A stretch of 64,000 bases of DNA from an uncultured delta proteobacterium (GTDB taxonomy: Bacteria; Desulfobacterota; Binatia; UBA9968), in assembly GCA_963767275.1 (NCBI GenBank), contig CAVYDL010000001.1, positions 257,393 to 321,392 on the forward strand. The letters are read 5' to 3'. A program made the position numbers and the translations under genes. The notes under the pieces are model-generated. The model did no database searches, was not told where the DNA came from, and saw nothing but the letters and a program-made list of their open reading frames with translations. Positions 24,480 to 42,860 of this stretch are shown here, in pieces. Each line of letters starts with the position of its first letter. Within the stretch, counting starts at the first letter, position 1.

Positions 24480-24620
24480 GTGAAAATCCATTCATGCTTC
24501 GAACCTTTGACATTGCTCAGGACAGCACGAACGGCAAATTTGTCAATGTTATCAATGCAATTTCCGTTCGCCCTGAGCTTAGTCGAAGGGCGAGTCAGAT
24601 TGTTTTACACACTCTGAGTG
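24480..24620. repeat. MITE/REP-like palindromic element of about 130 bp.
   Basis: Terminal inverted repeat gagtgtgtgaaaa ... ttttacacactc; internal arms gctcaggacagcacgaacggcaaatt / aatttccgttcgccctgagc; shares ccgttcg(c/t)cctgagc..gtcgaagg and cagattgt cores with 40500-40565 and 42785-42860. Confidence 0.6.
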
Positions 24621-24630
24621 AATTGCGAAG

Positions 24631-25410
24631 TTAGATTTTCTCGCTCGATTCGGGCGGCGCTTGCCGCTCAGCACGAACGATTTCAATCACCGCGAGCAGC
24701 GCCTGCCGCGGCGATACTTGCGGCTCATCTGAGAACTGCCCATCGGCGCCACAGCTCACGGTGAATTCAACATGGGAGTCGTCGTCGACCGCCACATGCC
24801 AGCGCAGCGAGTTTTCTCTGCCGGAGGCAATGGCGTGAGCGGTCAGCATATTGGGCATGATGAACTTGGCACCGCCGGCGGGTGGTTGTTCACCGTCGGC
24901 AATCCCTCGCAGGTAATTTTCCGCGCGCAACACTTTCGTCGGCGGACGCCCCGCCGGTTGCTCGGCGAGACATTTATAGGGCGGCAGCGCCGGCGGCTCG
25001 CCCGGCCCCATGTAAACAAAAATTATTCCGCCCGCTTCGACACAAGGATAAGACGGCTGGCCGACATCCCAGCGCCGTTCTTTCTCCGGCAGCCAGTCGC
25101 CGCGCAGCAGCACCTTGCCGCAGGTGTCGAATAGCCAGCCGTGATACATGCAGCGCAAACCGTCCGGCTCGACCCGGCCGTATATCATATCGACGCCCTG
25201 ATGCGCGCAGTAGCGCCCGATCAAAGCCGGCTTGCCCGTGCCGTCGCGAAAGAGAATCAACTCCTCGCCGAACAGTTGCACCGGGAACGGCTTGTCCGCC
25301 GGCACATCCTCCGACAACGCCGCCGGCTGCCAATAACGCCGCATCAGCGCGCCGCAAGGCGTGCCCTTGCCGGTCTGTGTCAGTAAATTATTTTCTTCTT
25401 CAGTCATCAT
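24631..25410 (-). CDS. Rieske [2Fe-2S] domain protein (ring-hydroxylating oxygenase alpha-subunit N-terminal type); short, and the catalytic domain is not evident.
   Basis: CAHQGVDM...CMYHGWLF Rieske CxH...CxxH pair; only 259 aa. Confidence 0.55.
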   Translation of the reverse strand: MMTEEENNLLTQTGKGTPCGALMRRYWQPAALSEDVPADKPFPVQLFGEELILFRDGTGKPALIGRYCAHQGVDMIYGRVEPDGLRCMYHGWLFDTCGKVLLRGDWLPEKERRWDVGQPSYPCVEAGGIIFVYMGPGEPPALPPYKCLAEQPAGRPPTKVLRAENYLRGIADGEQPPAGGAKFIMPNMLTAHAIASGRENSLRWHVAVDDDSHVEFTVSCGADGQFSDEPQVSPRQALLAVIEIVRAERQAPPESSEKI

Positions 25411-25608
25411 GAACCAAAAATCGATTCACCGCGGATTATCCAGCGCCGATGATAATCGATCGCATGGCGTAGTTCTTACCTTGGGCATCTGTCCGCCATC
25501 ATAAACACGATCGCGCCGGGATGCCAATTGTCCACGCACGCACCGTGATTGACAGCAAAAACAGCCAGACCTATAGTCCGCGGCATCTTTAGGTGTCAGG
25601 AGTACCTC

Positions 25609-26595
25609 ATGGATCGAATCGTTCCCATGATCCTATCTCTAATTATCTGCGCAACGCTGACAAGCGTCGCCACCGCTCAAGAGCGCATGCGCATCGCCTG
25701 GGCCGGCAGCACGCCGTCGAACACGCCGATCTGGGTCGCCGACCAGAAAGGGTTTTTCAAACGAAACGGCCTCAACGCCGAGGTCATCAGCATCAGCGCC
25801 AGCACGATCGTCATCCAAGCGCTGCTCACCGGCGAAGTCGATTTCATCGTCGCTCCGTCGGCGACGTTGGTTACTTCTAAACTCGCCGGCGCCGATACCG
25901 TGATGGTATCGACTAATCTGCCGCTGTTCATCGACCACATCGTTTCTCTGGGCAGCATTACGACCATCGAGCAGCTCAAGGGTAAATTCGGCGGGGTCAA
26001 CCGCTTAGGCACGACCTCCGACATGACGCTCCGGCTCGCCCTGCGCCGCTTGGGAGTGGACCCGGAGAAGGAAACCAAAATCATCGCCACGGGAGAAAAT
26101 CCCCAACGGCTCGCCGCCCTGGCCAACAACATCACCCAGTTCACGCTCTTGGGCGAACCGCTGGTGCGCGAAGCCGAAAGGCTCGGCTTTCGCGATCTAT
26201 TCGACATCGGCACGTTGAAGATTCCCTACCACGTCAACGCCATCGTCACCCGGGAAAAGACCGTCAAAGAGCGCCGGCCGCTGGTGCAAAAAGTCGTGCG
26301 CGCCTTCACCGAAGCGCTGCACTACATTAAGACCAACAAAGAGGACACCAAAGCGCTGATCGGCAAAAATCTCAAAACCAAAGACCCCGAAGGACTCGAG
26401 CGCGCCTACAAAGCCTACAACGGCGCCTTTCCCGAAGTTCCTTATCCCCACGCCGAAGGGGTCAAAACCCTGCTCGACGATATCGCCCCGCGCGACAAAA
26501 AAGCCGCTGCCGCCGATCCGAAGAGTTTTGTCGATATGAGCTTGGTGCAGGAATTGGAAGCGTCGGGATTTATCAAGCAGCTGTATAAAAGATGA
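25609..26595 (+). CDS. NMT1/THI5-like (NitT/TauT-family) ABC substrate-binding protein, orphan.
   Basis: Signal peptide, then RIAWAGSTPSNTPIWVADQKGFFKRNGLNAEVISISA... is the typical NMT1-like SBP pattern; about 330 aa. Confidence 0.7.
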   Translation: MDRIVPMILSLIICATLTSVATAQERMRIAWAGSTPSNTPIWVADQKGFFKRNGLNAEVISISASTIVIQALLTGEVDFIVAPSATLVTSKLAGADTVMVSTNLPLFIDHIVSLGSITTIEQLKGKFGGVNRLGTTSDMTLRLALRRLGVDPEKETKIIATGENPQRLAALANNITQFTLLGEPLVREAERLGFRDLFDIGTLKIPYHVNAIVTREKTVKERRPLVQKVVRAFTEALHYIKTNKEDTKALIGKNLKTKDPEGLERAYKAYNGAFPEVPYPHAEGVKTLLDDIAPRDKKAAAADPKSFVDMSLVQELEASGFIKQLYKR

Positions 26596-26637
26596 CCAAG
26601 AAATTTTGCTCAATGCACCAACGTCAATCGAAAAACC

Positions 26638-26907
26638 ATGCCTGAGATTTCTCGATTCTTTGGGATTGTCATCCGCATGTTCGTCGAGGCAGGCGGGCCG
26701 CATCACACGCCGCACTTTCACGCGTATTATCAGGACCTTGTTGCGATTTACGATATCACAAAGATCGAGCTATTGGCGGGCGCAATGCCGAGGCGGCAAG
26801 AACGGCTCGTTTTGGCTTGGGCCGAGCTTCACCAAGAGGAGTTACGGGCGAATTGGCAGACATTGCAACAGGGCCAAGCTGCGATTAAGATTGAGCCATT
26901 AAAGTAG
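26638..26907 (+). CDS. DUF4160 domain protein.
   Basis: MPEISRFFGIVIRMFVEAGGPHHTPHFHAYYQ...AWAELHQEEL matches DUF4160 along its length. Confidence 0.8.
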   Translation: MPEISRFFGIVIRMFVEAGGPHHTPHFHAYYQDLVAIYDITKIELLAGAMPRRQERLVLAWAELHQEELRANWQTLQQGQAAIKIEPLK

Positions 26908-26917
26908 AATATCATCC

Positions 26918-27235
26918 ATGACCCACCAAATTCATCGCGTTGTATCGTTTCAGAAAATCCCGCCATTCACTTTACGCGTCCAATTCGATGACGGCACATC
27001 CCAAATCGTAGATTTTCAACCCGTTCTGAAGGGGGAAGTTTACGGACCATTGCGAGATACCGCGGTTTTCGACCAAGTCAGCATCGATCCCGAAGCGCAC
27101 ACGCTCGTCTGGCCCAACGGCGCGGATTTCGATCCGGCGATTTTGCACAACTGGCCCGAATCCGGCCCGGAGCTCGAAGCCTTAGCCAACACCTGGAAGC
27201 CTCAGAACCATCGCGCAGCCGGAATTCCGACGTAA
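26918..27235 (+). CDS. DUF2442 domain protein (the usual partner of DUF4160).
   Basis: FTLRVQFDDGTSQIVDF...VWPNGADFDP; adjacent, 10-bp gap after the DUF4160 gene. Confidence 0.75.
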   Translation: MTHQIHRVVSFQKIPPFTLRVQFDDGTSQIVDFQPVLKGEVYGPLRDTAVFDQVSIDPEAHTLVWPNGADFDPAILHNWPESGPELEALANTWKPQNHRAAGIPT

Positions 27236-27254
27236 GTTACGAAGAAGCAGTTCT

Positions 27255-27360
27255 GTGCGCCAATAAAGCCGGCGCCGCTAACCAGACGATGTTCGTCGAC
27301 TTGAGCGAGGTGCAAGAACTGGCAGCATCGGGGTTTATCAAGCAGCTTTATAAAAGATGA
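27255..27360 (+). repeat. Roughly 105-bp imperfect direct repeat of the 3' end of the SBP gene at 26490-26595 (a gene-end remnant).
   Basis: gtcgacttgagcgaggtgcaagaactggcagcatcggggtttatcaagcagctttataaaagatga versus gtcgatatgagcttggtgcaggaattggaagcgtcgggatttatcaagcagctgtataaaagatga, with upstream aaagccg..gccg similarity. Confidence 0.75.
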
Positions 27361-27427
27361 CTCGTTCGAGACTTATGCAGGTATATGGTGAAATACAGGT
27401 TAATATTATCGATGGTGAAGTGGCTGA

Positions 27428-27836
27428 ATGGACATCACACTGGCAACAAATACCGACAATCCGATTCTCCAGTTTCGGAACGTGAGTCGTTCCTCGGGTG
27501 GTTCCGGATACGGAGCAGAGCTGCTTGTTCGATCTAGAGACTTCAGCGTGGAGTTCCCGTTTTACTTTGAGGTCGAACCTATGCGGGAGTTTATTGCTAA
27601 CCTGGACGAAATGGACAAGAACCTTGAAGGGGAAGGCTGTACTAAACCCAATGTATGAAGATGATTTTATCGAATTTGAGATAGACGAAAGTACCGGGCA
27701 TGTCGAAGTCCGCGGCGAAATATTCGAGCATTCTGAAATGCCACAGAGTTTGACGTTTGCGTTCCAAACAGATCAAACCTGTTTGGCTCCCCTGGTCCAA
27801 GAGCTAAAGAAATGGCAACAAATGGCCGCCAGTTAA
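27428..27836 (+). CDS. Hypothetical protein in an AT-richer islet (about 48% GC); apparent frameshift near 27630-27650.
   Basis: Two overlapping frames (27428-27658, 27498-27836) that join into one protein of about 135 aa; no recognisable domain. Confidence 0.4.
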
Positions 27837-27978
27837 CTATGCCTTTCAGCGGGCGACCAGCCGGTCGCCCTCTACAAATCCGAATTTTATCTTTGCGCCC
27901 TTTGCGTTCTTTGCGGCTAAGTCTTCCGGGTCCGAATTTTGTGACTTTTGTGCTCTTTGTGGTTAAATCATCCGACTC

Positions 27979-29079
27979 TTAATTCAGCCCGTAAAACACC
28001 CGCGGATTATCTTCGACGATTTTCTTGTGCATGCCCGCGCTGATGCCGCCGTCGTCTTTCAGCGTCGTCAAAGCATCTAATTCGGTTGACGAATCGGCAT
28101 GGCCGTAGTCGGTGCCGATCATCAAAGTATTCTCACCCATGCAGCTCTTGATCAGATACGGCACGTCGTCGCCGATCTGGCAGGTGACGAAGATGCCGGA
28201 CTGCTCCAACAGATCGTTGGGCAGTTTTTTATTCACCGTGTCCAAGCGCCGGCGCAGCTCGTAGATCACCCAGGGCACCCAGGAGGCCGCGGTTTCGATA
28301 AAGCCGAAGCGCAGCTTGGGGAACTTCTGCGGAATGCCGCAATTGAGGATGCGGAACATCGCCCCGACATTGAAAATCCGATACTGGTTGAAAAAATCGC
28401 GGCTGCCATCCGGGTTGACCATCATGTCGACCGCCGCGGCGCTGCCGTTGGCCTGATGCAGGCCGATGCAGAAATTCAGTTTCTCGGCTAATTCGTACAT
28501 CGGAAAGAAGTAAGGATCGCTGATCTGCCGCGCGCCTTCGAGGGGGCGCATGAACACGCCGCAGCCGCCGTTTTCCTTGGCGAATTTTAATTGATCCAGC
28601 GCATCCGGCATGCTCAAGAGCGGCAAGGTCGCCATCCAGCGCAGCCGCCCATTGCTCTGCTTCCAAACATCCGCCATCCAGCGGTTGTAGGCGCCGCACA
28701 ACGCCACTTCGGTATCGGCGCGCTCGGTGACCTGATCGAGAAAGATACTGGTGTAGAGCACCTGGAGATCGATTCCCAGCTCGTCCATATGCCGGATCCG
28801 TCCCGACACGTCGGCGAGATCGCGGGTCGCCATGGTCGTCGACACGTCGCGGCCGAGTTCGGCGGACTTCTTGTCGAGATCGTCTTTGCTGAAGGTAAAG
28901 CGAAACAGACCGCGAATCTTGCCGTCGATCACCCAATGGGCTTTCTGATTGTCGTCTTCCGGCTTGAATAGCTGGGGGCGAAACTTTTTTTCCGATGGCG
29001 TCAAATAATCCCAAGTCAGCGGACTTTCGACGACATGCGCGTCAGCGTCTACCCATCCCATAACGATTTCCTCCGTCAA
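27979..29079 (-). CDS. Amidohydrolase-2 family (TIM-barrel metal-dependent hydrolase, ACMSD-like).
   Basis: WVDADAHVVES ... FMRP ... IGTDYGHAD conserved His/Asp ligand positions typical of PF04909. Confidence 0.7.
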   Translation of the reverse strand: MTEEIVMGWVDADAHVVESPLTWDYLTPSEKKFRPQLFKPEDDNQKAHWVIDGKIRGLFRFTFSKDDLDKKSAELGRDVSTTMATRDLADVSGRIRHMDELGIDLQVLYTSIFLDQVTERADTEVALCGAYNRWMADVWKQSNGRLRWMATLPLLSMPDALDQLKFAKENGGCGVFMRPLEGARQISDPYFFPMYELAEKLNFCIGLHQANGSAAAVDMMVNPDGSRDFFNQYRIFNVGAMFRILNCGIPQKFPKLRFGFIETAASWVPWVIYELRRRLDTVNKKLPNDLLEQSGIFVTCQIGDDVPYLIKSCMGENTLMIGTDYGHADSSTELDALTTLKDDGGISAGMHKKIVEDNPRVFYGLN

Positions 29080-29168
29080 TCCATTTTGGATTTTTGATTT
29101 TCAATTTCCGGACGGGCGAAACATGTTTCGCCCCTACTAATATCTGTTGCCTAATGCCTATTGCCTGC

Positions 29169-29933
29169 TTAATGCAGCACGGCGCCGCCGTTGACGAGAA
29201 TCGTCTGGCCGGTGACGAAAGTGCTCAAATCGGACAGTAAGTAGAGCGCCGTCCCGACCAGATCTTCCGGCTGCTCGATGCGCTTGAGAATGCGCGTGGT
29301 CGCCGTCCGTTCATAATTCTTCAACGCTTCGTCAGTCGCTTTATCTTCGCTCATGGTCGCGCCGGGCGCCAGCGTGTTGACACGAATATTATCCCCGCCC
29401 AACTCGCGCGCGAGCACGCGGCTGAACCCCACCACCGCCGCCTTCGAAGTCACATAGTGCATCATCGTCAAGCCGCCGTTGAATGCCATGTTGGACGAGA
29501 TATTGACGACGCTTCCTTGTTTACGTTTCTGCATGGCGGGAACCACAGCCCGGCTGGATAGCCACAGCCCTTTGACGTTTACCGCCATGATGCGGTCCCA
29601 GGCTTCTTCGGTGATATCCTGCCAGCTGCCCTTTTCCGCCGGCACGCTCATAAAGATCGCCGCGTTGTTGATCAAGCCGTCGATCTGGCCATAGGCGCCG
29701 AGAGCTTTTGCCGCCATCTCCTGGCAGCTGGGAAAATTCGCCACGTCGACTCTGGTCGCCAGCGCTTTGCCGCCCTTGTCGGCGATCGCTTTGGCAACGC
29801 CGTCGGCGGCCTTATCATCGATATCGGCGACCACTGCCGTGCCGCCTTCGCGGGCGATCCCCATGCAATAGGCACGGCCAATGCCATGTCCGCCGCCGGT
29901 CACCACCACTACTTTGCCGTCCAATAAACCCAT
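29169..29933 (-). CDS. SDR-family short-chain dehydrogenase/reductase.
   Basis: GKVVVVTGGGHGIGRA (TGxxxGxG) ... NNAA ... S...YVTSKAAV (YxxxK). Confidence 0.85.
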   Translation of the reverse strand: MGLLDGKVVVVTGGGHGIGRAYCMGIAREGGTAVVADIDDKAADGVAKAIADKGGKALATRVDVANFPSCQEMAAKALGAYGQIDGLINNAAIFMSVPAEKGSWQDITEEAWDRIMAVNVKGLWLSSRAVVPAMQKRKQGSVVNISSNMAFNGGLTMMHYVTSKAAVVGFSRVLARELGGDNIRVNTLAPGATMSEDKATDEALKNYERTATTRILKRIEQPEDLVGTALYLLSDLSTFVTGQTILVNGGAVLH

Positions 29934-29979
29934 ATCACGCTCTCCCCTACCGCTATTACTTATCGCAAGTACTGGCCAT

Positions 29980-30040
29980 CGTTCAACGCTACGAACCGCG
30001 AGCGACCTTAACTTTGACCTTTGAACCTTGAACGGGCAAA
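29980..30040. repeat. TTGAAC-type repeat.
   Basis: cgttcaacgctacgaaccgcgagcgaccttaactttgacctttgaaccttgaacg. Confidence 0.6.
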
Positions 30041-30041
30041 A

Positions 30042-31109
30042 TTACGGTTTGAGAATCTTTTTCAATTTCGCCTTCAGCTCCGCCGGCAAGCCAAAAAACT
30101 CGTTGACCAGCTTCTGTACCTGCGTCGCCGACACCGGATCGATGTCGAGCTTGCCCTTGTCCGCCTCGGCGAGGAATTCTTTGTCGGCAAAGGTTCTGGT
30201 CAACGCCGACTCCAATGCCGCGGCACGGTCGGCCGGCGTCCCCGGTGGAACTGTGTAGACTTTGGCGAATTGATTGGGCGCGTAGGCGCCGAATCTGAGC
30301 AGCTGTTGTTGCTCTTCGGTCTTGCCGATCTGCCCAATGGTCGGCACGTTTTTGACCGGCAGCGCCGCGATCGGCTGATCGCCGACCTGCGCGAGGATTT
30401 GCCAATCGCCGTTTTTGACCCTGTCCAGCGACGTAACCTTGGTCGATTCCCAGCTATTGAAAAATCCGTCTAGCTCGCCGCTCTCCATTGCCAGGCGCAC
30501 GTCGGCAGTGCCCTTGTAACCGCTAACGACCTTGATGTTCGCGCCCAGCAGATCTCGCAACAGCATCGGCCCCTGTTCCACCGTGGAGCCAGGGATTCCG
30601 CCGATGGTGAGCTGCTTGGACTTGGCCCCGATCAGTTCGTCAAACTTTGCGATGCCGGATTTTTTTGTCGCCAGCAACAAATAGGTCTCCCCGATCGGCA
30701 CGCCGAGAAACCGAAACTTCGCTAGATCGAATTGCACGGCTGGATTGCCGAACTGCTGCTCCAAGATAATCTGGCCGCTGAAATTGCCGATCACCGTGCC
30801 GTCTTTGGGCGCTGCGTTAAACATGTGGTTGGCCAGGATAATGCTGCCGGCGCCGGCCATGTTTTCGACCATGATAGTGGGATTGCCGGGAATGTGTTTG
30901 TGCAGGTGGCGGCCGATCAGCCGCGAGTACGCGTCGTAGCCGCCGCCGGCGGAGAAGCCGACAATGATTTTTACCGTCTTGCCACGGTAAAAATCCGCCA
31001 CGGTCTTGTCATCCGCGGCGGCAGCCCAAGCTTGCCGGGCCGCGCCCAAGAGGGCGCTGAAAGTTAGCAGCGCAAATACTGCGAATAACTTTTTCACGAG
31101 TACCTCCAT
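30042..31109 (-). CDS. Bug/TctC-family periplasmic solute-binding protein, orphan.
   Basis: FYRGKTVKIIVGFSAGGGYD...IMVENMAGAGSIILANHMFNAAPKDGTVIG ... SGYKGTADVRLAMESGELDG ... NVPTIGQ ... VPPGTPADR ... IDPVSATQVQKLV follows the TctC pattern. Confidence 0.7.
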   Translation of the reverse strand: MEVLVKKLFAVFALLTFSALLGAARQAWAAAADDKTVADFYRGKTVKIIVGFSAGGGYDAYSRLIGRHLHKHIPGNPTIMVENMAGAGSIILANHMFNAAPKDGTVIGNFSGQIILEQQFGNPAVQFDLAKFRFLGVPIGETYLLLATKKSGIAKFDELIGAKSKQLTIGGIPGSTVEQGPMLLRDLLGANIKVVSGYKGTADVRLAMESGELDGFFNSWESTKVTSLDRVKNGDWQILAQVGDQPIAALPVKNVPTIGQIGKTEEQQQLLRFGAYAPNQFAKVYTVPPGTPADRAAALESALTRTFADKEFLAEADKGKLDIDPVSATQVQKLVNEFFGLPAELKAKLKKILKP

Positions 31110-31267
31110 CGAGAGACTCTGTTGTTAAACTGGGCTATCACTGCGCTCCGACGGCTGTCAACCGTCGTCCGCATCCAGCGGAAACAGCATTAGCCTCTGG
31201 ACAGCGGTTTATAAGTGAGATACCGAATCGGATCTGACGCGAAAAACGGATCGCGAACCCGGAGGAA

Positions 31268-33495: not shown

Positions 33496-34428
33496 CTCAT
33501 TGAGTTGCGTGGGAGCCGCACTAGGATATCTGTGACCCTGTGGGATAGTTCGCGTGCCAGAGCGAAACAGACGAGTAGTTTTGATCTGAACCGGTCTCGC
33601 CATTAGGTGCTTCTTAACCCATTCAAGAATGACCGCATTAGTCTCCTCCGGCGCCTGCCAGAAAAAACCATGGGACTGGCCCTTGAGCATTTTCATTTCG
33701 GCACCGCGAATGCGCTCCATCAGCACTTGAGCCTGCGCCCGGTGATTGCTGCCAACCGTGTCGGCCTCGCCGATCAGCACCAACGTCGGCGCCTGGACAT
33801 CGCCGAGTCGGTGCGTGCCTTCGAAGTTATGACGCGCGATGCACAGATGAATGAACGGATCGAGCTTGGCGTGGGTCGCCCAGGCTACTTTGAAAAATGC
33901 TTCCACCTGATCGCGGTGCGCCGTGCGATAGTCCTTGGTAAAAAATGTGTCCGACTCGACGATCTCTTCGTAGATAAATTTCTCGAAGCCCATCTCGACC
34001 ATGTCGTATACCATGCGGTGCGGCAAACCCGGCACGCAATCCGAACCGGCCCGGCCCGCGGTGCCCGAACCGCTGGCCGCCATGATCAGACTTTTTACTT
34101 TGCCAGGGAAATTTTGCGCCAGCGATAACGCGATGCGCCCGCCCATGGAGTGGCCGATGAAGTGGGCCGCCGGCAATTTCAAGTGATCCATCATCGCGAC
34201 GATGTCCAAGGCCATCTGCTCGATGGTGTAAACGGATTGCGTCGGCACCGAACGGCCGCAGCCGCGCGGATCGTGGAAGATCAATTGCAGAGAACTCGCC
34301 AGCGGCATCTGCCACGGCTTCCAAACCTCGCCGGAATAAGCCGTCGACGGCACGAAAATCAACGGCTCTCCGCTGCCGTGGGTTTCATAGTAGAAGTCGA
34401 CACCCGTCGGTAATTTTACATTGGGCAT
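33490..34428 (-). CDS. Alpha/beta-fold hydrolase.
   Basis: PLIFVPSTAYSGEVW...FIGHSMGGRIAL... Confidence 0.75.
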   Translation of the reverse strand: MPNVKLPTGVDFYYETHGSGEPLIFVPSTAYSGEVWKPWQMPLASSLQLIFHDPRGCGRSVPTQSVYTIEQMALDIVAMMDHLKLPAAHFIGHSMGGRIALSLAQNFPGKVKSLIMAASGSGTAGRAGSDCVPGLPHRMVYDMVEMGFEKFIYEEIVESDTFFTKDYRTAHRDQVEAFFKVAWATHAKLDPFIHLCIARHNFEGTHRLGDVQAPTLVLIGEADTVGSNHRAQAQVLMERIRGAEMKMLKGQSHGFFWQAPEETNAVILEWVKKHLMARPVQIKTTRLFRSGTRTIPQGHRYPSAAPTQLNEK

Positions 34429-34439: not shown

Positions 34440-34545
34440 CCTTCGCAGAAAGGTTTCTCGCTGCGCTCGAAATGACAAGACGTTAGTGGATGTCATCCGT
34501 GCATTGACTGTCATCTCGAACGATGTGAGAGATCTCTCCGAGTTT
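34440..34545. repeat. MITE/REP-like palindromic element (same family as 38935-39060).
   Basis: ggtttctcgctgcgctcgaaatgacaagac...tgtcatctcgaacgatgtgagagatctc versus gatttctcgccttgctcgaaatgacagac...tgtcatcccgaacgaagtgagggatctc at 38960. Confidence 0.65.
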
Positions 34546-34548
34546 CAT

Positions 34549-35526
34549 TTACTTGGCAGCACCGCTCTTGTAAAACCCTTCCTTCTCCAACTGCGCGACA
34601 AAGCGCGTGTCGAGAAAATCTTCCGGCTTAGCGGTCTTGGCCTTGGGCTCGGTGGGCAGCAACTCGCCGATGATCGTTTCCATGCCTTTGCGCGTCACGT
34701 ACGGAATCGTCTCGATGTAAGCACGCGCTTCGCCGTAAGTCGCTTCGAGAATCTCCGGATCTTTGATGCGCGCGTATTTCTGAATCGCGCGGATGCCGGC
34801 GGCTTTGTTCGCCTTCAACAGCTGCACGCCTTCGCTATAGCCGCGCATAAAACGGCGCGTCATCTCTTCGTTGGCCTTGACGAACGACCGGGTCGAACCG
34901 ATGGCGACGGAGACATACTCCGGGCCGTCCTTGGTCACGTCCATCAATTCGCTCAAGCCGGCTTTACGGGCGCGAAAGTTGGTCGGCGGCGAGAGCGCAC
35001 CGGCGTCGACTTGGCCGGCCGCGATGGCGGTAAAAATATTCGGCACGTCGACCAATTGCAGCATCTGATAGTCATCGGGTTTGAAGCCCGCTTTGTTCAT
35101 CACCCAAAGCGTCACGCTGTGAGTTGACGATCCCAGCCTGGTAATGCCGATTTTCTTGGCGCGCATTTCAGTTAAACTCTTGATCTCCGGCCGTGCCATG
35201 AACGAGAACACCAAGCGGTTGGCCACGCCGGCGATAATCGCTACGTCGGCGCCCTTGAGCGCCGCCGTCACCGAATTGCGCCCGTCCATGTAAGTATAGT
35301 GAAGTTCGCCGGCGAGCATCACTTGAATCGCCCGCGAAGTCGAAGGAATATGCACGAGTTCGACTTCAAGGCCGTTCTTCCGGAACAGCCCTTCCTCTTG
35401 CGCCACCCAAGTGCCGCTCATGTTGCTGGCGAACGAAGTCCACGCCACCCGCGCCTTCATCTGCGTCGAGCCGGCGCTCGGCAAGAGCAGCAAAGCCAGC
35501 GCAGGAATTAACGACCGGAGCAACAT
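34549..35526 (-). CDS. NMT1-like (NitT/TauT-family) ABC substrate-binding protein, orphan.
   Basis: Signal peptide, then KARVAWTSFASNMSGTWVAQEEGLFRKNGLEVELVHIPS... Confidence 0.7.
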   Translation of the reverse strand: MLLRSLIPALALLLLPSAGSTQMKARVAWTSFASNMSGTWVAQEEGLFRKNGLEVELVHIPSTSRAIQVMLAGELHYTYMDGRNSVTAALKGADVAIIAGVANRLVFSFMARPEIKSLTEMRAKKIGITRLGSSTHSVTLWVMNKAGFKPDDYQMLQLVDVPNIFTAIAAGQVDAGALSPPTNFRARKAGLSELMDVTKDGPEYVSVAIGSTRSFVKANEEMTRRFMRGYSEGVQLLKANKAAGIRAIQKYARIKDPEILEATYGEARAYIETIPYVTRKGMETIIGELLPTEPKAKTAKPEDFLDTRFVAQLEKEGFYKSGAAK

Positions 35527-35679: not shown

Positions 35680-35712
35680 GCCTTGAACCTTGAATGTTTG
35701 AACCTTGAACCG
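35680..35712. repeat. TTGAAC-type repeat.
   Basis: ccttgaaccttgaatgtttgaaccttgaacc. Confidence 0.6.
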
Positions 35713-35734
35713 CGCGGCGCGAAAAGCGCCGCGC

Positions 35735-36746
35735 TTAATTCGGCAACCAGCACACCGCCGCGATCTCGCTCAGCTCTCTGCGCAGCTTCGTCCACGACGC
35801 GCCGCTGTCATCGCTGCGGTAGAGATAACCGTAGCGGCTCGCGGCAAACATAACCTTTGGGTCGTCGGAATTGGTCGCGAACGTCCACATCGTCGAGTTG
35901 GGTTCCTGGGGCAGCGGCAAGAGCTTCCAGCTCTTACAGAAATCATCGCTTTGCGCGATTGCGCCTGAGGTTCCCGGCGTGAAGTCGCCGAAGCTCACCA
36001 TGATTTTTTTCGGATTGGCTGGGTCGACGGCAATGCCGCGCAGATAGTTTTCTTTGCGCGGATACTCCCACGGCAAACACTTCTGCATGTCGCGCGGCTC
36101 CCAGCTCTTGCCATTATCCGTGCTCGCATATATCTCCCGGTTGGCCATGATGAATGCCGTCTTGGGCGGGCCGGCGGTGACCGCAACGTTGTGAATATCG
36201 CGCCGCCCGGTCACCTCGACGATATTCCAGGTGTCGCCGCCGTCGCTGCTGTGACGGGCGCCGTCCACTTCGAGACCCGCCCAGATATGATTGGGCTCGA
36301 CAGGATCGACGGCGATGCCGGTGAACCTCGGCGTGCCCACCGCCTCACATTCCGTCGCCACTTCCACCGGCCGCTTGTCGAAGCTGCGGCCGCCATCCTT
36401 CGAACGAAAGAGCATCGCCGGCAGTCGGCGTGCCGGTGCCGACAAAAATGTTATCCGGATTCACCGGATCGATGCCGATCGCCCAGACATAGTGCGGATT
36501 GAGCGCCGAGTCGAGGTACTGCCAATTGGCGCCGCCGTCGGCGCTGCGATAAAGCCCGCGCTCGGTACCGGCAAAGAGAATATTGTGCTGCTTCGGATTC
36601 ATCGCGATGCAGCGCACCGAAGCCTCGTAAGCAAATCCCCGCCGCGGCCCGATGCGCGCCCAAGTCTGGCCATTGTCTTCGCTGCGCATGATGCTTTGTC
36701 CGATAGTTCCGACAACGATAGTTACGTCTCGCATATTTCCTCCCAA
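35735..36746 (-). CDS. BNR/Asp-box repeat protein (Ycf48-like/sialidase-like beta-propeller); apparent frameshift near 36350-36440.
   Basis: Seven S-x-D-x-G-x-T/S-W boxes (SEDNGQTW, SADGGANW, SKDGGRSF, SSDGGDTW, STDNGKSW, SDDFCKSW, SDDSGASW) spread across two frames. Confidence 0.65.
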
Positions 36747-36775
36747 GACGACTTGAACGTTTTGAACTAAGTCTT

Positions 36776-37757
36776 CTAGATGTTGACCCGATGCATATCC
36801 TTGGTCCGCGGTCCCGCCGCCACTCCCGGCGGAAAGATTGCATCGAGCCGGGCTAAATCTTCTTTGGTTAATTTAATCTCCGTCGCTTTGATGTTCTCTT
36901 CCAAATGGGCCCGCGTCTTATTGCTGGGGATCGGAATCACACCGCTGCCCTGAGCCATCAACCACGCCAGCGCCAGCTGCGCCGGCGTGCAATGTTTCTC
37001 CCGCGCCAGCTCTTCGAAGCGCGCCAGCAGAGCCAGATTCTTCGCCAGATTGTCGCCTTGGAATCGCGGATGGTTGATCCGGCCGTCGCCTTCGCTCATG
37101 TCTTTGGCATCATGCACGGCGCCGCCGAAAAAGCCTCGGCCCAGCGGCGAGTACGCCATAAAGCCCATGTCGTTTTCGCGGCACGCCTGGAGGTTGCCGC
37201 CCTTCGGGATCCCGCGACCACAGCGAATATTCCATCTGCAATGACACTATCGGATGAACCTTGCGCGCGCGCCGGATCGAGTTGGCGCTCGCTTCCGAAA
37301 GGCCGATATAACGCGTCAGACCGCGCTCGACCAACTTTGCCATCGCGCCCACCGACTCCTCAACCGGAATATCCGGATCTACCCGCGACATGCAGAATAC
37401 ATCAAGAGCGTCGATCCCCAACCGCTTGACGCTTTGCTCGCAATTCTGGGTTAGATATTCCGGCGTGCTGCCGCTGCGATTGCCGGCGGCGTCCGGCGCC
37501 CGTGGGCTGCCGGATTTGGAGTGAATCACGATGCGCTCGCGCCGCCCCTGCAGCGCCTTGTTGATCAACTCATGGTTGTGACCCTGGCCGTAGCTCGCCG
37601 AGGTATCGAGAAAGTTGATGCCGAGATCGAATGCCTTGTGCAACGTCGCGATCGATTCGTTATCGTCCGCCGGCCCATAGGCGCCAGACATGCTCATGCA
37701 GCCCAAAGCCAAGCGCGAGACTTTGAATTCCGTCGAGCCGAATTGAACGTAATCCAT
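36776..37757 (-). CDS. Aldo/keto reductase; apparent frameshift near 37110-37170.
   Basis: FGSTEFKVSRLALGCMSMSG...LGINFLDTSASYG...IGLSEAS, then a second frame GFMAYSPLGRGFF...ALAWLMAQGSGVIPIPSNKTRAHLEEN. Confidence 0.7.
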
Positions 37758-37812
37758 GCTGCCTCCGTACTGAGGTCAGAGTTACCGCAGGTGGACGGAG
37801 CAAGTCAAACCG

Positions 37813-38863
37813 CTATTTGCCCAACAACTTCTTCATCCGTTCGATCACTTCAGTGTCTTTGGTCATCACTTCCTTGGCGAGCCGATCGAGCTCCTCGCCC
37901 GAAGTGTATTCGATGTCGATGCGGCGCCGCTTCGCGTCGGCCAAGAGTTCCGGATCATTGAGCGTGCGCATGAAGGATTCGCGCAGGATCTTTACGTACT
38001 CGGGCGGCGTCGCCGGCGGCAGCACATAGGGTCGGCCGAAAGAATTGGAAGCGATCAACAAGCTCGCCAGCTTCTTGATCTGCTCCGAGCGCTTTGAACT
38101 CATCGAGCAGCTCATAGACTGTCGGCACGTCGGCGAGGCGCGCATCGCGCTTGCGATGGCTCTGCACCACAGCGCGGGCAAAGCCGGTCTTGCGCCAATT
38201 GGCGTAGAGATCGCCCGTGAACCAACCGGCGATGGTGAAGGAGCGGCACTGCACTTCGTTGCGCTCCACCGCCAGATCGATTTCCGGTCCGCCCGGATAC
38301 CCGGTGACGACATGGAACTTCGTGCCGATACCGTCGTTCAATAGCGTCGGCAGATAGTGGCTGGTTGTGCCGGTGCCGGTCGAGCCGCACTTGGGACCTT
38401 CGGCAGCCTTGCGCACGTCAGCCACAGTCTTGAACGGCGCGTCGCCGCGCATGTACATCAAATCTTCAGAGCGATCCGGGCTGCCGACGTAAATATATTT
38501 CGACCAATCAAACTGGACATCTTTGTTGCCGCCCAGTTGATTGAAGTACAACGCCGCGTTGACGGTGCCGAACGTCAAGCCGTCGGGCTTGGCCACCGAG
38601 TAAATATAGTTCGCGCCGACAATGTTGCCGCCGCCCGGCATGTTTTGCACGACCACTTCCGGTTTTCCCGGAATGTGCCTGCCGATATACTGCCCCACCA
38701 ATCGGCCATAGAGGTCGTAGTTACTGCCCGCCGTGCTGCTGACGATCAGCCGAACCGTCTTGCCTTGATAATAAGGCGTCTGCGCGTGCAACTCGATCGT
38801 CCACAACAAAACCACTGGAAGCGAAGCCAGAAGCGCTCTCATTGCAGTCTCCTTATGATTCAC
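37813..38863 (-). CDS. Bug/TctC-family periplasmic solute-binding protein; apparent frameshift near 38075-38095.
   Basis: YYQGKTVRLIVSSTAGSNYD...VVVQNMPGGGNIVGANYIYSVAKPDGLTFG...LADVPTVYELLDEFK, then a frame change to ...FGRPYVLPPATPPEYVKIL...EYTSGEELDRLAKEVM; collinear with the intact paralog at 62124. Confidence 0.65.
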
Positions 38864-38934
38864 GGATTCCTTCTATCCATTGCTCTCATATCACCACCCA
38901 TGTTTAATCAACAACAGAGCGCATCGTTGCGCTG

Positions 38935-39060
38935 CACGATGGTGGTTCAGATTGATTGTGGCGATCGAGAAAGATTTCTCGCCTTGCTCGAAATGACAGA
39001 CAAAAAGCGAGTGTCATCCCGAACGAAGTGAGGGATCTCGACCGAAAGCAACCACAATCA
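38935..39060. repeat. MITE/REP-like palindromic element.
   Basis: ggttcagattgattgtggcgatcgagaaagatttctcgccttgctcgaaatgacagacaaaaagcgagtgtcatcccgaacgaagtgagggatctc; the two arms are about 25 bp of imperfect inverted repeat. Confidence 0.65.
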
Positions 39061-39141
39061 CGGTAATGCGACATTGACAGCAGCGCGCGTTCTCATCTAA
39101 AAGGAATCCCAACAACCGGCGGACAATTGAAGGAGAACCAT

Positions 39142-40159
39142 ATGCGCAATCGTTTGTTAGTCTCGTTTTTCGGACTCGCTCTCGCGCTATCCGTGCCGCT
39201 GCGCGCCCAATCGCTGGCTGCTGCCGAGAAACTCGATAAGGTTCGCTTCACCTACGCCCCGCTGTCCGCCAGTGGATTTCTCTGGTTCATCGCCAAAGAC
39301 GCCGGCTATTTCGAGAAAAACCGCCTCGACGTCGACATGTATTTCGAAGGCGCATCGCCGATCATGGTGCAGTCGATTCTCGCGGGCGAGAATCAGCTCG
39401 CCGGCGGCTTGGGGCCCACCGTAGTCACCAACGTCTTACAGGGAGGAGATGTCATTCCCGTCGCCTGTATCACGCACACGTTTACCACCCCCATGTATGT
39501 CCAACCGTCGATCACCAGCTTGCAGCAACTCCGCGGCAAAAAAGTCGGGGTAAGCCGTATCGGTGCCGTATCGCACCTGACCGCCGATTCGATTCTGCGC
39601 CGTGCCCGAGTCGGCGATGTAACGATCATCCAAACCGGTGGCATTCCTGAATCCATGGCGGCGATCATGACCGGCAACCTCGATGGCGCCATGGTCAACC
39701 CGCCGAACAACATAATTCTTAGAGAAAAAGGCTTCCGCGAGATCGTCGGCGCGAAACAACTCAAAGAATTGAACCTGCGTTTTCCCGAGAACGGCGTCAT
39801 GGCCAAGCGCACCTGGGCCGAGAAAAATTCCGACGTCGTCAAAAGATTTATCAAATCCATCGCTGAAGGCTTGAAGCGCATGCATGACGATAAAGACTTT
39901 GCGATCAAGACTCTCGGTAAATACACCAAGGTCACCGACGCGAAATCGCTCGAAGAAAGCTATCGCTGGGGCATCGATAGCTTTTTCAAGGATTTCAAAA
40001 CCTCACCCGACGGCGATGCGGCTCATGGTCGACCAGCTGGCCTCCTCGCGCATGATTGATCCGAACCTCGCGCAAAAAACCCCGCTCACGGCCTACTATG
40101 AAAATCGCTACGTCGAGGAGCTGGAGCGGGAGGGATTCTTCAAGAAGCTGTGGCAGTAA
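39142..40159 (+). CDS. NMT1-like ABC substrate-binding protein; apparent frameshift near 40000-40030.
   Basis: RBS aaggagaacc 5 nt before the ATG at 39142. Signal peptide, then KVRFTYAPLSASGFLWFIAKDAGYFEKNRLDV..., and the C-terminus resumes in a second frame ...NLAQKTPLTAYYENRYVEELEREGFFKKLWQ. Confidence 0.7.
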
Positions 40160-40210
40160 TTCAAAGAGTTTCCGAAACGCCAAGGTGGAGCATGCCTCGA
40201 CAAGCTCAGC

Positions 40211-40501
40211 ATGAACGGATTTAGTTCAATAGCTAAGACAATCGGATTCGCAACCACGTTTATGGAAATTAAAGTTGATCAAGTTACTCAGAGCAGCGGG
40301 GCGCGTGTCGCCTGCGGTTTCTGCAGAAAAACACGCAACGAAGTTAGTATTCTTATGATCTCAAATGAAAGCGTAATTTGTGAAGAATGCATTGCAACTG
40401 GATTGGAAGTATTCGTCCGTGAGTCTCGCCGTCTTTCCCTGAGGCTCGCTTTCTCGGTATTTAAGATCATCGCCTCGATTGGTCGGTTCCTCAGAATTTA
40501 G
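40211..40501 (+). CDS. Small protein with a ClpX-type C4 zinc-ribbon (ZB domain) and no AAA+ domain; AT-richer islet.
   Basis: CGFCRKTRNEVSILMISNESVICEECI parallels the ClpX N-terminus [26 protein letters not shown]; 96 aa. Confidence 0.45.
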   Translation: MNGFSSIAKTIGFATTFMEIKVDQVTQSSGARVACGFCRKTRNEVSILMISNESVICEECIATGLEVFVRESRRLSLRLAFSVFKIIASIGRFLRI

Positions 40502-40565
40502 ACAGAAAGAGATCGAATGCAAATCTTTTTCCGTTCGTCCTGAGCCCGTCGAAGGCCTCTGAGAT
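40500..40565. repeat. MITE/REP-like element fragment.
   Basis: ttccgttcgtcctgagcccgtcgaaggcctctgagattgtgttcagcg, compare 24555-24600. Confidence 0.55.
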
Positions 40566-40633
40566 TGTGTTCAGCGATTTGCGTAACTTTCCAGGAAAAT
40601 GAAAGTCACGCTCCAGCGCGTTTGGAGATCAGT

Positions 40634-41620
40634 ATGAAAGCTCGTGTCTTTGCCGCAATCCTGACAACGCTATCGGTGTTCCTCACACCACCCGCGCCCG
40701 CCCAGGACAAACCGAAGATCTATGTCGGCCCTTCAAGCAAGACTCTAGGCTACAGTCCGCTGTGGGTCGGCGCGAAGAAAGGGTTTTTCGAACAACAAGG
40801 ATTGGACGTGCAAGTGGTGGTGCTGCGCGGCATGCCTATGGTCGTCCAAGCCCTCGCGGCGGGATCGATCCACTTCGGTTCCGGCGGGCCCGAGCCGTTC
40901 ATGGAGTCGAGCGACCGCGGCCTCGATTTCATCATCACCGGCGGGGTCATTAACGGCATGACAGCGGCCATCGTCGCCGGCAAGAAATATAAAAGCTTCG
41001 AAGATTTGCGCGGCACGACGGTGGGCTCGTCTTCATTGACCGGCGGCACCGTCACCGCCTTTCGCGAGGCAATGAAACAGAAAGGACTCGAATATCCCCG
41101 CGACTACAAGATTCTAGTGGTCGCCGGCGGTTCATCCGGCAATCTCGCCGCGCTCCAATCCGGCCAGATCTCCGCCACGACGGTCGCCGTGCCGCTCAAC
41201 TACGCCGCCGAGGAATTGGGATTTCATAGCATCGGCCGTCTGCTCGACGCCGTGCCGCAGTTTCAATCGGCGGCGTTGGCCACGCGCCGTTCCTGGGCCG
41301 AGAAAAATCGCCCGCTCATGGTGCGCTTCATGAAAGGCATGGTGCAGTCGCTGCGCTGGATGCACAACAACAAAGACGCCACGGTGGAGTTCTTGACCAA
41401 GGAGATCCAGCTAAAACCAGTCCACGCCCTGAAAGGCTGGGAGTACTATACGCAGAACCGCATCTGGCCCTACGACGGCGAACCCAACATGGAAGGCATG
41501 AAACACAACATTCGCGTCTACTACGACCAGACCGGCGCCAAAGCCCCGGTGCCGGATGTGTCTAAATTTGTCGAGATGAGTTATCTCAACGACGCGTTGA
41601 AGGAGTTTGGCAAAAAATAG
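40634..41620 (+). CDS. NMT1-like ABC substrate-binding protein, orphan.
   Basis: MKARVFAAILTTLSVFLTPPAPAQ signal peptide, then KIYVGPSSKTLGYSPLWVGAKKGFFEQQGLDVQVV... Confidence 0.7.
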   Translation: MKARVFAAILTTLSVFLTPPAPAQDKPKIYVGPSSKTLGYSPLWVGAKKGFFEQQGLDVQVVVLRGMPMVVQALAAGSIHFGSGGPEPFMESSDRGLDFIITGGVINGMTAAIVAGKKYKSFEDLRGTTVGSSSLTGGTVTAFREAMKQKGLEYPRDYKILVVAGGSSGNLAALQSGQISATTVAVPLNYAAEELGFHSIGRLLDAVPQFQSAALATRRSWAEKNRPLMVRFMKGMVQSLRWMHNNKDATVEFLTKEIQLKPVHALKGWEYYTQNRIWPYDGEPNMEGMKHNIRVYYDQTGAKAPVPDVSKFVEMSYLNDALKEFGKK

Positions 41621-41652
41621 AACCGATCACGAATCGGTTTGCCGATTACTGT

Positions 41653-42729
41653 CTAGTATCGCCGTAACACCGGCATTACTTCTTGAGAGAACAGCCGCAT
41701 CGACTGCAGCACCTTGTCCTGCGCCAAGCTGCCCGACGCAATGTTGAGCATCACCTGCTCGGGGTGCATCGCGTCGACGTAAAATTTGATCTTCTCGACG
41801 CACTCCGCCGGCGTGCCCCACACCGCCATGACGTTGGGCCATTCTGTTGCGACGGCTTGTCTGGCCTTTTCCGGCGTGCAGAGTTTTTCGAAGGCTTCGC
41901 GCGAGGCGCTCTTGCTGGCGTAGGTTTGAATCTTTTCAGTCTCCACCGGACGGCTCAGCCTGCCGCGCAGAAACACATCCGCCTGGCTCGACAGCGCTAT
42001 GGCGCCCTGTTCGATTGCTTCCTCGCGGGTCCGCGCAACGTGGCAATGAATACCCAGCACGACATCGCTTGATTTGCCCGCCGGCAAATTCTTTCGATAG
42101 GTTTCGGTCAAGCTGCGAACCAGTTCGAAGGGAATGCCCAAGTATCCCGGTTGCACCAGACCTTGGCCAACTTTCCCCGCAAAGCTCGCGCTGTCCGGCG
42201 TCGTCGCGGCCGCGGTGTAGATCGGCGGATGGGGCTGCTGTACCGGCGGCGGGCTCAGTTTGAAGTCACGGATCCGCCAATATTCGCCGTCGAGTCTTTC
42301 GATATAATCGCCCTTGAATATCTCGACCAGCATGCGGATGCCTTCTTCGAAGCGCGCCGTGCTGGTGGCAGCGTCGACGTTCATGCGATTGATAACCCAG
42401 GGATGGCCGCGGCCGAGGCCGAGCATGATTCGACCTTCGGTCAATAAATCAGCGGCGGCGACTTGGCTCGCCAACATCGCCGGATGGTGAATCGGCATGC
42501 TGATGATGCCGGTGAGAAAGCGAATCCGCCGCGCCCGCTGCGCCGCGGCGACGTAAACTCCCAGCGGAAATGGCGAACATGAGAACAGATCCTTGCCGTA
42601 ACTCTCGGTGATCGAGAAGAAATCGTAGCCAAGTTCATCGGCGACGGCGATCTGTTCCAACACCTCGGCGTAAAGTTGATGCTCCGACTTGCCCGGATAG
42701 GAAAACTCGGTGAATAATCCAATTTTCAT
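41653..42729 (-). CDS. LLM-class flavin-dependent oxidoreductase.
   Basis: MKIGLFTEFSYPGKSEHQ...GYDFFSITESY...RIRFLTGIISMPIHHPAMLA... Confidence 0.75.
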   Translation of the reverse strand: MKIGLFTEFSYPGKSEHQLYAEVLEQIAVADELGYDFFSITESYGKDLFSCSPFPLGVYVAAAQRARRIRFLTGIISMPIHHPAMLASQVAAADLLTEGRIMLGLGRGHPWVINRMNVDAATSTARFEEGIRMLVEIFKGDYIERLDGEYWRIRDFKLSPPPVQQPHPPIYTAAATTPDSASFAGKVGQGLVQPGYLGIPFELVRSLTETYRKNLPAGKSSDVVLGIHCHVARTREEAIEQGAIALSSQADVFLRGRLSRPVETEKIQTYASKSASREAFEKLCTPEKARQAVATEWPNVMAVWGTPAECVEKIKFYVDAMHPEQVMLNIASGSLAQDKVLQSMRLFSQEVMPVLRRY

Positions 42730-42784
42730 ATAGCGCACAACAAATAAGGGCGGGTTTGAAACCCGCCCCTACGAATTCGATTAT

Positions 42785-42860
42785 GTGCCGTTGACTTTCT
42801 AACGCCCGATCGCCCTGAGACTCGTCGAAGGGTGCGGCCAACCGATCCGAAATTTCGGCC
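42785..42860. repeat. MITE/REP-like element fragment.
   Basis: cgcccgatcgccctgagactcgtcgaagggtgcggcc. Confidence 0.5.

Follow-up and report, generated by a model that had tools for sequence, protein, structure and literature searches.

Few non-coding features of bacterial genomes are as common as repeats of the repetitive extragenic palindrome (REP) type, and an enzyme, the REP-associated tyrosine transposase (RAYT), is known only for the class that carries a GTAG tag. The present report concerns two families of REP-like hairpin repeats, termed A and B arms, in a 64,000-nucleotide stretch (the window) of contig CAVYDL010000001.1 from an uncultured delta proteobacterium of the Binatia, and the association of such arms in other genomes with genes for small GIY-YIG nucleases. 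In the REPIN–RAYT system, a Y1 transposase gene present in one copy accompanies the GTAG-tagged REP doublets (Bertels and Rainey, 2011, PMC3116915; Nunvar, 2010, PMC2817692). Class 3 TnpA_Y1 genes are flanked by hairpins with tandem G.A pairs, of the form CnGAG-CCGCGACC-GTAA-GGGAGCGG, and Solibacter usitatus is reported to have about 600 of them (Quentin et al., 2018, PMC6006769). In Di Nocera et al. (2013, PMC3733652), REPs are sorted into GTAG-tagged and CGTC-tagged super-families. The latter, which takes in Neisseria dRS3 and Rickettsia RPE-4 and RPE-6, is described there as having a tag that often reads TGTC (also CCTC), a stem of 8–9 bp starting with A and then T, a loop of 4–5 nt, a CCA-type tail and inverted dimers, predominantly head-to-head, in five phyla. 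According to the same paper, the CGTC class 'apparently lacks a dedicated transposase', and no RAYT or IS200 gene is flanked by its units.

In this study, five repeat loci of the window (E1 to E5) were analyzed together with comparison loci fetched from other genomes (L-numbers). The initial annotation had described the five as MITE-like (MITE, a miniature transposable element with inverted repeats) or REP-like palindromic elements of 100–130 bp, and a sequence check and BLAST within the window found all five present. The size did not hold: the repeated unit is a hairpin arm of 25–35 nt (A arms, 24–30 nt; B arms, 25–35 nt), and E4 and E5 are single arms. Both arm types have a common architecture, in which an outer stem of 3–6 bp, GA and 2 bp lead to a short loop, beyond which come 2 bp, GA and once more the outer stem. 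Type A is laid out as a TGTC tag, AT-YCC, GA, RC, a 3-nt loop, GY, GA and GGR-AT, and type B as CCGTTCG-YCC-T, GAGC, YT, GTCGA and A-GGR-YGAACGG. As an instance, the window copies are ordinary REP-type repeats in a Binatia genome; the new part is the association with GIY-YIG genes.

GIY-YIG genes flanked by cognate arms

In other genomes, each arm type was shown to flank directly a stand-alone GIY-YIG gene encoding about 95 amino acids, often as terminal inverted repeats (TIRs). An initial clustering of the open reading frames (ORFs) around 120 loci gave no recurrent family and missed these ORFs of ~95 aa, which were probably displaced by longer overlapping ORFs; the GIY-YIG genes were found by listing the ORFs that lie between inverted arms. 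The arm-flanked ORF contains the GIY-YIG domain PF01541 (E = 1e-12 to 2e-17). Six PF01541 ORFs were present in 3.3 Mb of arm-selected loci, and in four of the six cognate arms lie at most 36 nt away on both sides. The nuclease matches the UPF0213 structures 1ZG2 (E = 5e-13) and 1YWL (E = 2e-10) and matches no curated NCBIfam model; UPF0213 corresponds to COG2827 (YhbQ). No function or repeat link for the UPF0213 family is recorded in the sources searched, and the literature searched yielded no paper linking GIY-YIG proteins to REP-type repeats and no match to the arm sequences or their translations. In Caulobacter, according to one paper, there are several small endonuclease genes of COG2827 whose role is unknown.

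The link was tested with homologues of two GIY-YIG proteins (37% identical to each other) that were retrieved by protein similarity alone, arm flanking being read from the translations in homologues long enough to run into flanking DNA. In the B-adjacent nuclease clade, 59 of the 76 long homologues carry B-arm translations (VRPELVEG, PSTSSGRT, LRQAQGER, FDKLRANG) and none carries an A-arm translation, while A-arm translations (ADPSLRSG-stop, IPRFARDD, LGMT) occur in 56 of 102 members of the A-adjacent clade, with no B-arm translation among them. Neither type was found in 120 control hydrolase homologues. The stop codon of the nuclease often lies inside the arm (the ending ADPSLRSG followed by the stop, from GGGATGACA). 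Furthermore, five further GIY-YIG loci whose proteins lack the scanned motifs were checked at the DNA level, and all have arms of the cognate framework. The arm families are thus shown to be specifically linked, clade by clade, to small GIY-YIG genes in other genomes.

In L254, a locus on a 3.95-Mb contig, the GIY-YIG gene (4001–4312, 103 aa) sits between folA and an apaH-like gene and is enclosed by perfect 32-bp inverted repeats TGTCATTCCGAACGAAGTGAGGAATCTGCTTC of the A-arm type with the tags outermost; the unit is ~375 bp long and has no target-site duplication (TSD). In L251, L252 and L253, where the stop codon is within an arm, the gene has B-arm arrays on both sides; the three loci are nearly identical, the differences being a 142-nt segment that carries arms and a count of four versus five tandem units. 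In L248–L250 the gene is preceded, at a distance of 28 nt, by a B arm, and the L257 locus has several B arms plus ten partial units of 21 nt. Such 'stutter' arrays of partial arms beside full arms, with a period of 21–28 nt, are frequent (L014, L030, L069, L086, L251/L253, L257), and the number of units is four in L251 compared with five in L253 and ten in L257. In L256 (2900–3700), the arms have the A outer frame (TGTCATCCCGA ... GAGGGAYCTG), with the GCGNAGC mini-hairpin swapped for a longer stem-loop, which suggests that the outer frame with its tandem G.A pairs is the conserved recognition part.

Architecture, folding and spread of the arms

Covariation was examined in the 139 A-arm matches held by the 120 A-selected loci. 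The three pairs that the search pattern leaves free are complementary in 138, 134 and 138 of the 139 arms, with GC..GC alternating with AC..GT and with CCC..GGG, TCC..GGA, TTC..GAA and CTC..GAG as further combinations; the loop is GNA in 107 of the 139. The corresponding free pair of the B arms is C-G in 90, T-A in 26, T.G in 13 and C.A in two arms. When the B hairpins are extended to CCGTTCG/YGAACGG, stem position 7 has a G.T wobble more often than G-C (17 versus 3). Each arm is therefore shown to be a small imperfect palindrome with covarying stems, and the hairpin is under selection; the wobble asymmetry of the B arms would be consistent with one strand acting in single-stranded form.

The inverted doublets of the window form one long RNA hairpin on either strand, with z = -3.5 to -7.1 compared with shuffled sequences. 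The RNA values are -7.1 (plus strand) and -4.7 (minus strand) for E1, which has z = -5.6 as DNA, -4.6 and -3.5 for the two strands of E2, and -3.6 and -4.3 for those of E3. A structured small RNA or a terminator module, both of which had been proposed in the initial annotation, did not find support. No arm of the window or of eight diverse loci matched Rfam, either at the gathering threshold or at E up to 10, and no U-tract terminator or promoter-like site was found among the arms, the sole terminator-like site (42744–42772) lying beside E5. The orientation of the arms relative to neighboring ORFs is unbiased (A, 28 to 26; B, 17 to 16), arms classed as inside an ORF being left out of these counts because ORF calling in GC-rich DNA is crude. 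A strand-specific RNA gene or a riboswitch is thus unlikely, given the lack of orientation bias, of an Rfam match and of a promoter or U-tract site.

Other functional readings of the arms were also set aside. The site scan of the arms gave no support for promoter or terminator function. The core was considered by eye as hammerhead-like, boxB-like or tRNA T-arm-like, and each of these was abandoned since the defining nucleotides are missing and Rfam is negative.

Both arm types were shown to be multi-copy and to occur with near-identical sequence in genomes of many phyla. The A pattern was found in at least 120 loci in a genome scan, with ~16 chance matches expected by our own estimate, and the 22-base B pattern in at least 120 loci in a metagenome scan (GC 38–72%); both counts are lower bounds from an unknown sampling order, from which no proportions follow. 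The A-pattern taxa are Acidobacteriota, Chloroflexota, Bacteroidota, Nitrospirota, several proteobacterial classes, Omnitrophota, the candidate phyla radiation (CPR), Verrucomicrobiota, Gemmatimonadota, Firmicutes and one Nanoarchaeota metagenome-assembled genome (MAG), and complete chromosomes are included. The two families also occur together, as six B cores lie inside A-selected loci, where ~0.03 would be expected. IMG/VR contigs classed as viral contributed 72 A and 111 B stretches (L258–L409 onward), which may belong to phage DNA itself or to the host flanks of prophages.

A arms are arranged as 73 singlets, 54 tail-to-tail doublets (TT, tags outermost) and 12 head-to-head doublets (HH, tags facing), and B arms as 70 TT, 30 HH and 38 single. 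The doublet spacers measure ~29–33 nt, with the exception of A-type HH pairs (median ~45 nt).

Window copies and turnover among relatives

The window has 9–10 arms in its 64 kb, in three inverted doublets (E1, E2 and E3, all HH) and in singlets (E4, E5 and an arm at 40191–40218). The features are as follows.

24474..24614, no strand assigned: E1, B-type head-to-head doublet
24474-24486: E1 left tail GAGTGTGTGAAAA
24488-24534: E1 degenerate reverse B arm CCATTCATGCTTCGA..GCTCAGGACAGCACGAACGG
24535-24563: E1 AT-rich spacer, 29 nt
24564-24598: E1 forward arm CCGTTCGCCCTGAGCTTAGTCGAAGGGCGAGTCAG
24603-24614: E1 right tail TTTTACACACTC
34447..34538, no strand assigned: E2, A-type head-to-head doublet
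34454-34477, minus: E2 reverse arm TGTCATTTCGAGCGCAGCGAGAAA
34490-34497: E2 partial 'stutter' copy TGTCATCC
34509-34532: E2 forward arm TGTCATCTCGAACGATGTGAGAGA
38968..39042, no strand assigned: E3, A-type head-to-head doublet
38975-38998, minus: E3 reverse arm TGTCATTTCGAGCAAGGCGAGAAA, followed by a 13-nt spacer
39012-39035: E3 forward arm TGTCATCCCGAACGAAGTGAGGGA
40191..40218, minus: B-type single arm CCGTTCATGCTGAGCTTGTCGAGGCATG, absent from the initial annotation
40531..40557, plus: E4, B-type single arm CCGTTCGTCCTGAGCCCGTCGAAGGCC, 3' half degenerate
42806..42837, plus: E5, B-type single arm CCGATCGCCCTGAGACTCGTCGAAGGGTGCGG
59144..59161, minus: uncertain intergenic copy, a weak A-like arm (TTCC.GAACAAGTGA.GGAA) that lacks the TGTCAT tag

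The A-arm motif, written TGTCATYYCGARC-NNN-GYGAGRRA or TGTCATYYCGARCNNNGYGAGRRA, matches the window exactly at four places, compared with a chance expectation of 0 and with no match in 100 dinucleotide shuffles in which two mismatches were allowed. The second core that had been noticed in E1, E4 and E5 is indeed common to them: CTGAG-N3-5-GTCGARG occurs four times against 0.03 expected, the additional copy being at 40195–40209 on the minus strand. The homology noticed between E2 and E3 is likewise real, with ~90 nt aligned at 73–87% identity by BLAST inside the window (34447–34538 and 38968–39042) and two inverted A arms in each. The weak arm at 59144–59161 comes from a scan that gave 335 matches in real loci and 77 in shuffled loci.

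All of the window arms are intergenic, between ORFs with Pfam hits, and none encodes a transposase, as had been stated initially; six-frame translation of the window also yielded no Y1 or GIY-YIG ORF. E1 begins one base past the TGA stop of a 2-hydroxyacid dehydrogenase gene (2-Hacid_dh, plus) that converges with a Rieske gene (minus), and a candidate 5-bp direct repeat, CTGAG, stands on each flank. Its outer inverted repeat of 12–13 nt (GAGTGTGTGAAAA / TTTTACACACTC), which had been read as the TIR of a MITE, is a recurrent tail module (TTTTCACACAGTC-like) that is also found 3' of B arms in L127 and L170. E2 is bordered by two minus-strand genes, with the start of an alpha/beta hydrolase gene at 34428 on one side and the stop of an NMT1-type binding-protein gene at 34549 on the other. 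E3, which is 77% identical to L053 across 88 nt, lies between divergent TctC-like (minus) and NMT1-like (plus) genes. E5 is 3' of a solute-binding-protein gene (stop 42861, minus strand) and is adjoined by a separate intrinsic terminator hairpin (42744–42772, minus strand) that is outside the arm.

The initial annotation placed one element beside an isolated ClpX-zinc-ribbon ORF. An element does flank it, but there is more than one: two inverted B arms, 40191–40218 (minus) and 40531–40557 (plus), bracket the zf-C4_ClpX ORF (40211 or 40262 to 40501, plus), and the former overlaps its first ATG (40211). The stretch between them (40219–40530, 312 nt) has a GC content of 43%, compared with 57.5% for the window. 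The order of arm, ORF and arm resembles that around the GIY-YIG gene of L187, and the ORF may be a small cargo cassette or the resemblance a coincidence.

Turnover was followed in Binatia relatives (L121–L127, about 110 kb) at the hydrolase gene beside E2, whose homologues are named Candidatus Binatia (best 88–93% identical). The orthologous region upstream of this gene has an A head-to-head doublet in the window, a B singlet in L121, L122 and L126, an A tail-to-tail doublet in L123 and no arm in L124, L125 and L127. In addition, E5 is 94% identical across 33 nt to L121:13419-13450, a copy in another, unrelated gene context; one arm subtype is thus found in unrelated gene contexts across Binatia genomes. 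The near-identical loci L251, L252 and L253 are also unlike in arm content. Arm content is therefore shown to turn over between related genomes. The suggestion that the elements behave as non-autonomous ones agrees with these three observations, and the elements are neither single-copy nor conserved untranslated regions, because an E5-like arm occurs in another context in L121 and the content upstream of the hydrolase varies.

Other repeats and rearrangements were observed in the same loci. The Binatia contigs of L124 and L125 are 99.75% identical. In L125, an ornithine cyclodeaminase-like gene is interrupted by a 525-bp IS200-like insertion (15394–15918) that encodes a Y1_Tnp of 141 aa and has hairpins ccccgtggcaagaccacgggg at its ends without relation to the A or B type. 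An IS3-like insertion is present in L124 and missing from L125. TTGAAC-rich heptamer-type repeats (e.g. TTTGAACCTTGAACCTTTGAACG) occupy many intergenic regions of the window, are often close to hairpin arms in the Binatia relatives, and are probably another repeat family from the initial list. Their positions are as follows.

Window 4711, 22704, 23350, 30013, 35682, 44531, 55549, 56590 and 59178: TTGAAC-rich repeats
L121:9785-9980: TTGAAC-rich repeats

Elsewhere in the window, a duplicated gene pair lies near the start (777–3461), and five tandem paralogous genes of ~400 aa each, with ~1.3 kb spacing, occupy 10455–18516. The 2-hydroxyacid dehydrogenase upstream of E1 is split across frames (23395–23748, 23639–24205 and 23886–24473), with only the C-terminal NAD-binding domain in the last ORF, and could represent a frameshift or a pseudogene.

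Proposed mechanism, rival explanations and known systems

We judge it somewhat more probable than not that the window loci, as singlets or inverted doublets, are orphan, non-autonomous copies of two related hairpin repeats, both REP-like, that are linked to GIY-YIG genes. The wider proposal is tentative and is held with somewhat less than even confidence: an unrecognized class of bacterial selfish elements would have the ~95-aa UPF0213 GIY-YIG nuclease as its sole protein, as a 'REPtron' with this enzyme in place of a Y1 transposase, and the A and B arms would be its non-autonomous partners. The autonomous form of this compact element would consist of an arm, the GIY-YIG gene and an inverted arm. 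The nuclease may recognize the arm, in the form of a single-stranded hairpin or an extruded cruciform, by its tandem G.A pairs, G(N)A mini-loop and conserved G.T wobble and may nick near the 5' tag, whereupon break repair or strand transfer would copy arms into new intergenic sites. Solo arms and doublets without a gene would be non-autonomous derivatives or remnants on which a nuclease encoded at another genomic site acts in trans, and any effects on the host, such as the stabilization of mRNA 3' ends or the insulation of neighboring genes, would be secondary. The TT doublets of other genomes have the layout of arm, GIY-YIG gene and arm minus the gene.

A number of observations weigh against the proposed element. 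The doublets of the window are HH, whereas internal deletion of an arm-gene-arm unit predicts TT. No GIY-YIG gene was found in the window or in the ~110 kb of Binatia loci, and only six nuclease genes were seen against several hundred arms. No TSD and no pair of empty and filled sites with clean borders was found; in front of the hydrolase gene, divergence or rearrangement of the regions prevents a clean alignment of an empty with a filled site. Single arms are not unusually stable by nearest-neighbor DNA energies. Moreover, physical association leaves the mover undecided, as a nuclease gene could home into pre-existing doublets.

This last point leads to the main rival, in which the arms are an older, independent REP family and the GIY-YIG gene acts as a free-standing homing endonuclease for which arm doublets are a multi-copy landing site, the arms being targets and not products. 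GIY-YIG enzymes include classical homing endonucleases, and the gene occupies the exact place of the spacer of a TT doublet in L254, L081, L163 and L239; the small number of nuclease genes relative to arms fits as well. So does the finding of Di Nocera et al. (PMC3733652) that CGTC REPs flank no transposase. However, homing leaves the spread of the arms and their sequence conservation across phyla unexplained, and the arrays of partial arms beside the genes in L251, L253 and L257 suggest that arms are generated locally. The strict pairing of clade with arm type and the stop codons within arms suit co-evolving partners at least equally, and we regard homing as unlikely. Mobilization as classical REPs or REPINs, by a RAYT (a Y1 HUH transposase) or a class 3 TnpA_Y1 encoded elsewhere, is improbable. 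It would account for extragenic inverted doublets that form long hairpins, an unpaired 5' tag, stem wobble and the presence of both HH and TT dimers (PMC3116915; PMC3733652), and class 3 hairpins also have tandem G.A pairs (PMC6006769). The GT[AG]G tag is missing, however, and the class 3 hairpin sequence is unlike both arm types. The Y1_Tnp ORFs of the fetched loci (L173, L041, L125, which is of IS200 type, and L230, which has its own REP GGGGACAGACCCGAGGTCAGTCCCC) are not flanked by A or B arms. CGTC units, according to Di Nocera et al. (PMC3733652), flank no RAYT or IS200 gene.

REPs of Escherichia coli stabilize upstream mRNA, and the arms might similarly be structured RNA or DNA selected by the host, as stabilizers of mRNA 3' ends, as hairpins for intercistronic processing or insulation, or as sites bound by a conserved host protein, and be kept by that function. 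The folding of the doublets beyond shuffles on either strand (z = -3.5 to -7.1) agrees with such a role, as do the position of arms ~60 nt past ORF ends, the ratio of convergent to divergent contexts (20 to 12) and the tolerance of G.U-type wobbles on one strand (13 to 2). We nevertheless give this explanation little likelihood, because the arms show no orientation bias relative to flanking genes (28 to 26 and 17 to 16), lack both an Rfam match and a U-tract, are replaced by other arm types or by none in orthologous intergenic regions, and would not for this reason flank GIY-YIG genes specifically. Far less probable still is that the loci are conventional MITEs, with TIRs and TSDs, that come from an insertion sequence of the DDE type. 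The outer inverted repeats of E1 (12–13 nt) with CTGAG on both flanks were the feature in their favor. The outer repeat is, however, the tail 3' of B arms in L127 and L170, the common unit is only 25–35 nt, and no arm-associated DDE transposase emerged from the ORF clustering of the 120 genome loci. The TSD that a MITE would leave is absent at E2 to E5, and the 5-bp repeat at E1 is the only candidate. Of the initial MITE/REP-like designation, the multi-copy, non-coding, REP-like hairpin thus stands, and the MITE with TIRs and TSDs is not supported.

The clade-specific flanking makes small GIY-YIG genes a concrete enzyme candidate for orphan REPs and hints at a role for the uncharacterized UPF0213 family. 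Should the proposal of a GIY-YIG element be true, the CGTC/TGTC-tagged REPs would gain the enzyme they have lacked and UPF0213 a function, and the recurrence of the same hairpins of 25–35 nt in more than ten phyla would be explained. In practical terms, the arms create many spurious ORF extensions (VRPELVEG, PSTSSGRT, ADPSLRSG) and are likely assembly and recombination breakpoints in MAGs from soil and sediment, this Binatia genome among them.

With respect to known systems, the window arms share with REPs in general that they are extragenic imperfect palindromes within 20–40 bp, able to form a stem-loop, with inverted dimers being frequent. As in the REPIN–RAYT system (PMC3116915; PMC2817692), the palindromes are short and imperfect, inverted doublets form one long hairpin, singlets are likely remnants, the enzyme gene is flanked by its own repeats ('REPtron') and the clade of the enzyme matches the type of repeat. 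In contrast to that system, the flanked enzyme is a ~95-aa GIY-YIG nuclease and not an HUH-Y1 protein, the tags are TGTCAT (A) and CCGTTCG (B) and not GT[AG]G, and the arm sequence hardly changes from phylum to phylum, unlike that of the lineage-specific REPINs. In L230 (980–2030), a RAYT-like Y1_Tnp gene of 232 aa has its own REP GGGGACAGACCCGAGGTCAGTCCCC on its flanks and is 7.5 kb from a B-arm doublet on the same contig, so that two different REP systems coexist there. The class 3 TnpA_Y1 hairpins, whose copy number is high, resemble the arms in their layout, where the outer stem, tandem G.A and 2 bp lead to a short loop that is followed by 2 bp, G.A and the outer stem, and in the CnGA 'foot', and differ in sequence (CCGCGACC-GTNA-GGGAGCGG) and in having a Y1 protein as enzyme.

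The stand-alone UPF0213/COG2827 proteins are the nearest known relatives of the arm-flanked ORFs on the protein side, through the matches to PF01541, 1ZG2 and 1YWL. For the center of the A arm, the likeness is to the d(GCGNAGC) DNA mini-hairpin, reportedly described by Hirao and colleagues as a biophysical observation on oligonucleotides; most A-arm centers read GCGNAGC, or ACGNAGT with a compensating change, although the mini-hairpin is not a genomic element family. Among repeats, the CGTC/TGTC REPs of Di Nocera et al. (PMC3733652) are close to the A arms. Like these REPs, A arms have an unpaired 5' TGTC and a stem starting with AT, occur in several phyla as extragenic inverted dimers and are orphans of a transposase. 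The A-arm stem has about nine positions only when the two G.A mismatches are counted, and the A-arm loop is 3 nt, or 5 nt with the closing C-G. Unlike the CGTC/TGTC REPs of that paper, A arms have tandem G.A mismatches with a 3-nt GNA loop, end in a TCT or CCT tail and not CCA, and are TT more often than HH across genomes (54 versus 12), although the window copies are HH; B arms do not have such a tag. The A arms are here called close relatives of the CGTC/TGTC class and are not filed as members of it.

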